NCBI GenBank assembly: GCA_964188305.1
Contig: OZ076894.1
Reading direction: 5' to 3' (one strand)
DNA: 64,000 nt
DNA from: Podarcis bocagei
Taxonomy: Eukaryota
The position numbers were made by a program, and so were the translations under genes. Within the stretch, counting starts at the first letter, position 1, and the number at the start of each line of letters is the position of its first letter. Under the pieces are notes generated by a model. The model saw only the letters and a list, made by a program, of their open reading frames with translations. It made no database searches and was not told the DNA's origin. Of the stretch, positions 47,248 through 48,949 are shown in pieces.

Positions 47248-47716
47248 CTGAAGAATACATAAGAATCAGGCTGAGCACATTTTCAAATTTTTCATTATTA
47301 ATACTGAAAAAACAAACCTACATTTCATTGTTTAGCAATGCCTGGAAGAGGTACAATAATATAAATTAAAACCAAAGGGTCTAAGCAAATAAACCGATAA
47401 CAAGAAGAGATAATACCACAGCAAAAACTGATTTTGGGGGGGTAAATAAGTAAGCTTTTGTAATTTAAAAAACACACACATACACACACAGCAATGTCCA
47501 TAGCAATAACAGTATCAAAGTCTGTTCAAGCCAATTAACCTCCAATTAAGACCTTACAAATAGCGGGGGAGAGATGGCAAGCAAAATGCGAGGGAGATAG
47601 TGAAAGATACAGGAAATTGAATGCAGATTTCCAAAAAATAGCAAGGAGAGACAAGAGGGCCTACTTAAACAAGCAATGCAAAGAAATAGAGGAAAACAAC
47701 AGAATGGGAAAAACAA

Positions 47717-48524
47717 AGCGTGTTCTCACTAAAGGAGAGCACGTGTTGCGGATGGGGACGGTCAAAGCACCCTGAAGTGAATGGGCAAGTGGAGATTAAG
47801 GAGCCTGACGTTGGAGCTGGCTGTTGCTGGGGCAAAACTGATGTTGCGATTTTAGGGGTGGGATCGGAGCTTATTTAAGCAGGGTCCACAGCAGGCTACT
47901 TTCTCTTTTGCTGTGGACATCGGATCTCCCGCCCGCCCTCCCTTTTTGGGCTTGCGCCTTGACCTTGCTTTGCCTGTCATGGGGTCGTTCGCATTGGTGC
48001 GGGGGCCTAGTAGGAATTTACCGACTGGCTGATTAGTGAGTGCCTTTCGGGTTTTGCCTACTACTTAGCAAATCGTCACAACTTGTAAGGTTGGCGGTTA
48101 GGCATTGGGTTAAATTGGTTGGTGGAGGGGTATGGATTGGCTGTGCCTACCCCTCCAATGCTGGCGCTGCACGGGAATTCCGTTAAAGGAATTCAGGGCC
48201 TTACCATCCTTTCGTCCAAACTCCTGGAATCGGGTTTGGGCCGTGTAAGGCCCCTAGGAGCATGCAGGGAGAAGCTGAGGGCCTGTGTCGCAGCTCCAGT
48301 TATCCCTGCACTTGTTCCTCCACACTGGCTTTCGCTGGAATCCGGAAGCCAGTGCTGTCCCCAAGGCGGGGGGGACAGCTAGTCATAACCAATGCCTAAG
48401 CAACCACTCACTATTTGTATGAAAATAAAGTTGTGGCCAAAATTTATGCCAAAAAACCTTAACCAAAAATTATGTGTGTTGTGTGAGTTATTGGGGTGAG
48501 GGTGTTTTGGAGGACCTCAGCACG
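47717..48524 (+). mobile_element. 808-bp non-coding insert, probably a solo terminal-repeat unit of a tyrosine-recombinase (DIRS/Ngaro-type) retroelement
   Basis: Precise insertion with caa on both sides; no TG..CA ends and no poly(A) tail; joined ends give CACGC-AAA-GCGTG; TATA-like 47872-47878; AATAAA 48424-48429. Confidence 0.6.
48089..48405 (+). ncRNA. Candidate highly structured RNA domain (multi-hairpin junction) inside the insert
   Basis: Closing stem ttaggcattgg / ccaatgcctaa (48098-48108 / 48389-48399) encloses six hairpins of 7-10 perfect bp; stem extensions rely on G-U pairs. Confidence 0.55.
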
Positions 48525-48949
48525 CAAGAGATCTGTTCAAGAAAATTGGAGATATAAAAGGAACATTTCGTACAAAGATTACCATAATAAAGGACAAAAG
48601 TGGAAAGGACCTAACAGAAGCAGAAGACATCAAGAATAGGTGGCAAGAATACACAGAGGAATTATACCAGAAAGATATGGATGTCTCGTACACCCCAGGT
48701 AGTGTGGTTGCTGACCTTGAGCCAGACATCCTGGAGAGTGAAGTCAAATGGGCCTTAGAAAGCACTGCAAATAACAAGGCCAGCGGAAGTGATGGTATTC
48801 CAGCTGAACTATTTAAAATTTTAAAAGATGATGCTGTTAAGGTGCTACACTCAATATGCCTTGAATAAGAATTCAGCCTTGTAAGAATTCAGCATTAAAT
48901 TGTTGGCCTTTATCCAGCCCATCCAGGGCCTGTGCACCCTTGGCTAATG

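Follow-up and report, generated by a model that had tools for sequence, protein, structure and literature searches.

What is the insert that interrupts a LINE fragment in a gene of Podarcis bocagei, and how did it come to stand there alone? The locus lies in a 64,000-nucleotide stretch of DNA (contig OZ076894.1 of assembly GCA_964188305.1, genome position C9:35278001-35342000; hereafter the window), in which an original prediction made from the letters had described an 808-bp element with a recombinase-style site at its joined ends. We find that the insert at 47717-48527 is a solo A-X-B unit of an Ngaro-type tyrosine-recombinase retrotransposon, i.e., a non-coding end unit whose full-length relatives in the same genome encode reverse transcriptase (RT) and recombinase. 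The Ngaro label is a putative one that draws on the structure and domain content of the family.

The host LINE, which we take to be of the RTE/BovB type, was searched genome-wide (1521 candidate copies, the best 40 scored), and in its uninterrupted sisters the two flanks join with no gain or loss at 19 of 19 loci. Because the host copy differs from its sisters by only ~1.5%, the insertion is recent. As the window has CUB and EGF exons on its minus strand, the plus-strand insert is antisense to a tolloid-type gene, presumably TLL1, in agreement with the intronic antisense placement proposed earlier. The features of the locus are as follows.

47549..47716, plus strand: left part of the host LINE fragment, 93-94% identical to sister copies
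47713..47716, plus strand: host target motif R-B-A-A (here ACAA), directly 5' of the insertion point, defined on 101 left flanks
47717..48527, plus strand: solo A-X-B unit, Ngaro-type, 811 bp (87-100% identity among the best 40 of 3884 candidates in the genome search)
47717..47927, plus strand: repeat A (corresponding to A1 and A2 of full-length elements, which are 100% identical over 210-215 bp in self-comparison)
47718..47744, plus strand: left-end inverted repeat, a hairpin if single-stranded, with arms 47719-47727 and 47735-47743 (fold z -2.3)
47872..47878, plus strand: TATA-like box TATTTAA of repeat A, the inferred promoter (TAT(T/A)TAA in at least 69 of 76 units)
47884..47918, plus strand: 10-bp hairpin near the inferred transcription start, arms 47884-47893 and 47909-47918 (fold z -4.8)
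47928..48090, plus strand: spacer X, restricted to solos and to the interval that separates A2 from B2 in full-length elements
48091..48527, plus strand: repeat B (corresponding to B1 and B2, 99.8-100% identical over 434-437 bp)
48089..48405, plus strand: predicted multi-helix RNA domain of repeat B, closing helix 48098-48108 with 48389-48399
48424..48429, plus strand: AATAAA, putative poly(A) signal (75 of 76 units)
48473-48489, plus strand: GT-rich tract, 3' of AATAAA
48528..48860, plus strand: right part of the host LINE fragment, 98% identical to 39 other scored copies

All motifs named in the original prediction are present where it had placed them, including the CAA trinucleotides at 47714-47716 and 48525-48527, and its statement that the insert holds no credible open reading frame agrees with a longest ATG-started frame of 74 codons. 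Repeat A contains both the left-end hairpin, each arm of which is kept in 71 of 76 aligned family units, and the TATA-like box; the arms of the hairpin at 47884 are moderately conserved across the same units, and a motif within X is conserved as well. Since these motifs are conserved across 76 aligned family units, they go beyond chance.

Among the 40 scored copies of the insert, 16 form the 3' end of longer elements, with a second copy of the last 435 bp preceding each, and the 10-kb stretches behind these 16 longer loci revealed a copy of the insert's first 212 bp ~6 kb upstream. The parents thus have the layout A1-body-B1-A2-X-B2 over ~7 kb (A ~212 bp, X ~163 bp, and B ~435 bp), and self-comparisons of full-length elements showed that the repeats are direct and split. 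The body encodes, in order, a putative gag-like product, RT with a putative RNase H, a recombinase, and a putative SGNH-like product, and in one element scanned in full (L044) it consists of four frames of 559, 611, 334, and 203 codons. The RT was identified by Pfam RVT_1 (PF00078, E 1.2e-13) and a YLDD motif; the tyrosine recombinase lies 3' of it on the same strand, with a Phage_integrase match above cut-off (PF00589, E 1.2e-6) and the catalytic motifs R-HxxR-W-Y; and the 203-aa ORF after the recombinase weakly matched the GDSL/SGNH hydrolase family PF13472 at E 0.004-0.006, under the curated cut-off, and carries GHSI, GEND, and DGVH motifs. Neither gag nor RNase H had a Pfam match in the frames of L044; the first frame is that of 559 codons, and acidic motifs are present that we read as RNase H-type. 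No Dam or other methylase match was found in the four ORFs of this element. The suggestion that the insert belongs to a tyrosine-recombinase retroelement with split direct repeats is therefore borne out by longer copies with RT and recombinase found across the genome. As the repeat pairs differ by 0-1 mismatches (A1/A2 in 200 bp of 26 copies; B1/B2 in 400 bp of 29 full-length copies), the full-length copies are very young.

The coding content of the full-length elements varies. All four coding regions are kept in only 9 of 29 (L031-L046, L096-L105, L142-L144), and at least 90% of the recombinase region is kept in 28 of 29, including elements that lack gag and most of RT; this difference suggests a requirement in cis for the recombinase or for RNA within its region. 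The youngest full-length family (L031-L038, L040, L041, and L046; e.g., L031 6644-7978) is non-autonomous: a ~1 kb tandem repeat has taken the place of gag and RT over most of their length, and the recombinase is joined in frame to a piece of gag, giving a 444-codon ORF that is open in 7 of the 11 copies. Two full-length elements of different subfamilies lie head to head ~800 bp apart at L144 (C8, 73.22 Mb), and the one at L046 (C373) lies within a 185-bp satellite array.

The joined ends of the insert, previously read as a recombinase-style site, correspond to a real B1-A2 junction (CACGCAA/AGCGTG) that is internal to full-length copies: its 26-nt pattern has 59 exact genomic matches, against none for the reversed control. 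Repeat B ends 3' in CACGCAA, the left half of this junction, and because 30 of 30 loci from the first genome search terminate in CAA, the right CAA is element sequence. The left flanks (n=101) instead carry a purine at -4 (98), a base other than A at -3 (97), and A at -2 (93) and -1 (87), i.e., a motif R-B-A-A common to solos and full-length copies, and their last three bases are TAA in 36, CAA in 30, GAA in 15, AAA in 4, and others in 16. Insertion at R-B-A-A adds no target bases. Four insertions occupy multi-copy host repeats, with 15-25 empty paralogs each whose flanks meet at gap 0, and no target-site duplication, including one of 4-6 bp, was seen at these four empty sites. Given the constant CAA end, the variable left flanks, and the gap-0 empty sites, the unit measures 811 bp without target duplication; the length of 808 bp given earlier was three bases short.

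A fixed, duplicated 3-nt caa core, as initially proposed, does not fit these data, as the right copy belongs to the element and the left copy occurs in only 30 of the 101 flanks; the double caa here is a coincidence of the R-B-A-A preference. The AAA loop likewise fails as a shared core: the bases common to target and end are the AA at the end of CAA, which lie off-centre from the inverted repeat of the junction, and target sites have no inverted repeat. At 5 bp, the perfect arms of the junction are shorter than those of classical recombinase sites. The target resembles the left half of the junction (GCAA). The absence of LTR-type ends and of a long target duplication had been noted from the single copy and holds for the family.

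At the present site, -2 is A, whereas all 19 LINE sisters that lack the insert have C or G there. The simple explanation is an earlier mutation, and a donor-derived base could also account for it; the former is preferred because host bases are unchanged at the three other multi-copy sites. As a general rule, a donor-derived -2 base was set aside: it was seen only here, and the other candidate loci have 1-3 paralogs that are ~80% alike. Further positions show weak preferences. Among the 101 flanks on the left, T is favoured at -6 (51) and G at -5 (44); among the 107 on the right, ~9 of which are not family ends, T is favoured at +5 (49) and at +7 (44), and these last two agree with the donor junction. 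One copy (L058) is inserted in a CAA microsatellite, and some flanks of L102, L127, and L138 match internal parts of other family members, which suggests insertion into related elements.

The description of the insert as a self-contained transcription unit stands in that the signals are present and conserved; they are the parent's own, namely its putative promoter (A) and its predicted folded domain and putative poly(A) region (B), now adjacent. Judging by these signals, an RNA of ~550 nt from this copy is possible. The predicted fold of repeat B is strong (z -6.9) compared to A (-1.2), X (-0.1), and ORF and LINE controls (-2.4 to 0), and the opposite strand of B also folds (z -5.1). Across 25 copies, two-sided changes occur in 12 of 129 predicted pairs versus 2-8 in slid controls, and the long closing helix is almost invariant and contributes no covariation. 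Covariation support for the predicted domain is thus modest, since the structure was derived from one of the 25 sequences, the copies are related, and the closing helix does not vary. Rfam gave no real match to the insert (one chance hit, E 0.48). Each of four RNA runs from another organism, mostly 90-95% alike, gave 76-121 reads that map to L044, chiefly to B, A, and X; they point in both directions and show no pile-up at a start or end. Because subfamilies resemble each other more in their repeats than in their ORFs, these reads are uninformative on a short RNA. A switch in which AATAAA is masked differently at B1 and B2 to allow read-through was rejected, as 12 elements showed no consistent direction. 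The end of X (48075-48084) can pair with 48428-48437, just past AATAAA, an arrangement possible only at B2 and in solos, and this helix is predicted in only 4 of 12 elements.

How, then, did the solo arise? We consider it probable that the insert is the leftover of A1 x A2 recombination in a full-length copy at this site, with the coding body deleted. Under the published DIRS-order model, RNA from A1 to B2 would be reverse-transcribed, the internal B1-A2 junction would template the missing ends, and the recombinase would join the junction to a host site resembling its left half. A full-length copy would in this way have inserted into the young LINE fragment in the tolloid-gene intron, and host homologous recombination between A1 and A2 would then have removed A1-ORFs-B1.

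The forms of the family were counted in the first 100 of 212 exact matches to an 18-nt B-end pattern (C1-C5 and part of C6, under half of the total), which comprise 20 full-length elements, 47 solos (45 after removal of two segmental duplicates), and 13 B-ended elements without A2-X-B2. One of the units counted as solos, L090, has X-B with A not detected; another solo (L067-L069; C3, 105.26-105.28 Mb) is triplicated with its flanks at ~6.6-7 kb spacing in a local segmental duplication. A complete A1 lies upstream of 10 of the 13 B-ended elements, a partial A of one, and none within 10 kb of two; the B1 x B2 product therefore exists, and solos and B-ended elements are the pair of outcomes that recombination between A1 and A2 and between B1 and B2 would be expected to leave. 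The tandem A-body-B-A-body-B-A-X-B was found once (L140/L141; C8, 62.77 Mb) and, from its arrangement, could be the reciprocal of an unequal A1 x A2 exchange; a circle inserted into the junction would look alike. The median nearest-neighbour distance on B was 0.0% for full-length copies (n=20), 1.27% for solos (n=45), and 1.0% for B-ended elements (n=11, two with deleted B left out) (Mann-Whitney p 9e-5 and 0.008). In a tree of 76 units, every young clade is a mixture of solos and full-length copies, several of the solos matching full-length ones at 99.4-100%; solos make up 17 of the 18 best matches in one clade diverged by 1-3%, and the youngest clade is nearly all full-length. Full-length copies hence appear to be short-lived and to decay to solos. 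Since full-length copies are young, solos are older, and both the B1 x B2 product and the reciprocal tandem occur, A1 x A2 recombination after insertion is favoured.

The ratio of solos to B-ended products, 45:13 (p 3e-5 against 1:1), counts against plain recombination, as B is twice as long as A and its copies are closer (B1-B2 separation only 375 bp); selection against long coding copies could be its cause. It would also be accounted for if the element's own machinery made or moved A-X-B, through excision of the body by the recombinase or fresh integration of A-X-B circles or RNAs; the B-ended product, which ought to prevail under plain homologous recombination, would for this reason be outnumbered 3.5-fold. 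On that view, the solos of this vertebrate would be either a programmed outcome or mobile mini-elements of the SIRE kind. Taken as a whole, we regard this reading as unlikely. Its excision form, in which the left end (R-B-A-A plus A1) recombines with the B1-A2 junction to leave A-X-B in place, or an A-X-B minicircle is resolved and integrates at a new site, is rather improbable. The left end resembles the junction by construction, and the surplus of solos, the retention of the recombinase region in nearly all full-length copies, and the A at -2 here are all consistent with it; yet -1 is A in 44 of 52 solos versus 24 of 26 full-length copies (one of which is an internal junction), and as solos are no richer in AA than full-length copies, this parity weighs mildly against exchange at the junction. 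Solos moreover accumulate with age, as a slow post-insertion process predicts, and the unchanged host bases at the three other testable sites also argue against recombinase action.

The minimal non-autonomous element that was offered beside the solo repeat in the original prediction is distinctly improbable, and the solo by recombination is better supported. Such a mini-element would be mobilized as a short RNA copied and integrated by the proteins of full-length elements, and the TATA-like box, conserved predicted folded domain, and poly(A) signal all lie within A-X-B. With the best 40 candidates scored per search, this copy's subfamily was found only as two solos, with no full-length or B-ended member: its nearest relative is another solo (95-96%), and the nearest full-length copy is 89-90% identical. 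Small groups of solos at 98-99.6% without an equally close coding copy also occur, and 5 of 52 solos have a solo within 1% and no coding copy within 1.5%. A solo RNA would, however, lack the B1-A2 junction that end rebuilding appears to require in the published model; the youngest level shows no near-identical solo clade without a coding relative, its solos matching full-length copies at 99.4-100%; and B-ended products and the reciprocal tandem require recombination anyway. Adoption of the insert by the host, as an antisense RNA gene that regulates the tolloid-type gene, would fit the antisense position within the intron, ~0.5 kb from an exon, the intact signals, and the strong predicted fold, but we give it very little credence, as the insert is younger than its barely diverged LINE host, every signal is common to the family, and Rfam holds no match. 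The LTR-like size and promoter/poly(A) layout would suit a solo LTR from an ERV or Gypsy element, whose parent would carry a DDE integrase, a reading with next to no probability: there are no TG..CA ends and no short duplication, and it is refuted by the split repeats and tyrosine recombinase of the parents together with the gap-0 empty sites. Host recombination between A1 and A2 thus remains our preferred reading, even though host recombination, recombinase excision, and direct integration leave the same sequence because A1 equals A2.

The insert itself is an ordinary remnant of a known kind. The family is useful: it is very young, many of its copies have identical repeats, the products of both recombinations are present, and its target motif is clear, so that it lends itself well to work on the proposed Ngaro replication model and on the question of whether SIRE is a remnant or mobile. 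If the recombinase made the solos, or placed a short unit scarlessly after R-B-A-A, the DIRS order would gain a mechanism, one that would also be of interest as an integration tool.

Among known systems, DIRS1-like elements have an internal copy of the end junction and integrate at a short shared motif without duplication, the rule given for DIRS1 in PMC3266345, and their NTT termini mirror NAA here; according to PMC3266345 and PMC7192593, however, they have inverted terminal repeats, an internal complementary region (ICR), and a methyltransferase domain, none of which is found here. Membership was thus rejected, the present repeats being direct. The PAT-like group, defined by split repeats plus a methyltransferase in PMC7192593, was rejected on the methylase search of L044. 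Ngaro-like elements of Xenopus (PMC9210276) have four ORFs (gag-like, RT/RH, YR, and SGNH hydrolase), a layout that the present ORFs match with putative gag-like, RNase H, and SGNH assignments, and they share identical split repeats, although these are 236/152 bp compared to 212/435 bp here; the word "solo" is absent from the text of that paper. Our search found no paper on vertebrate Ngaro solos; the founding Ngaro paper lay outside it, solos or flanks may be tabulated in the supplements of PMC8547959 and PMC9210276, and vertebrate solos or target motifs may have been covered before by Poulter and Goodwin 2005 and by Poulter and Butler 2015.

Two close parallels are in print, namely SIRE (VIPER A2+B2) and the solo AB repeats of the Cafeteria Ngaro. 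In PMC6681497 and PMC12278014, SIRE of Trypanosoma cruzi consists of VIPER A2, an internal piece, and B2, and whether it is a remnant or mobile is posed as an open question. The anatomy is the same, including the exclusive internal piece and the lack of target duplication, whereas VIPER belongs to a separate kinetoplastid clade with another gene order, and its internal piece is ~30 bp compared to 163 bp here. For Cafeteria burkhardae, PMC8547959 describes an A1-[ORFs]-B1A2B2 parent and isolated AB units that were proposed to arise from recombination between 5' and 3' repeats and likened to solo LTRs. The present family differs in its vertebrate host and in the 163-bp spacer X between A2 and B2, and it adds a tabulation of the two kinds of recombination product, the reciprocal tandem, the age gradient, and the target motif.
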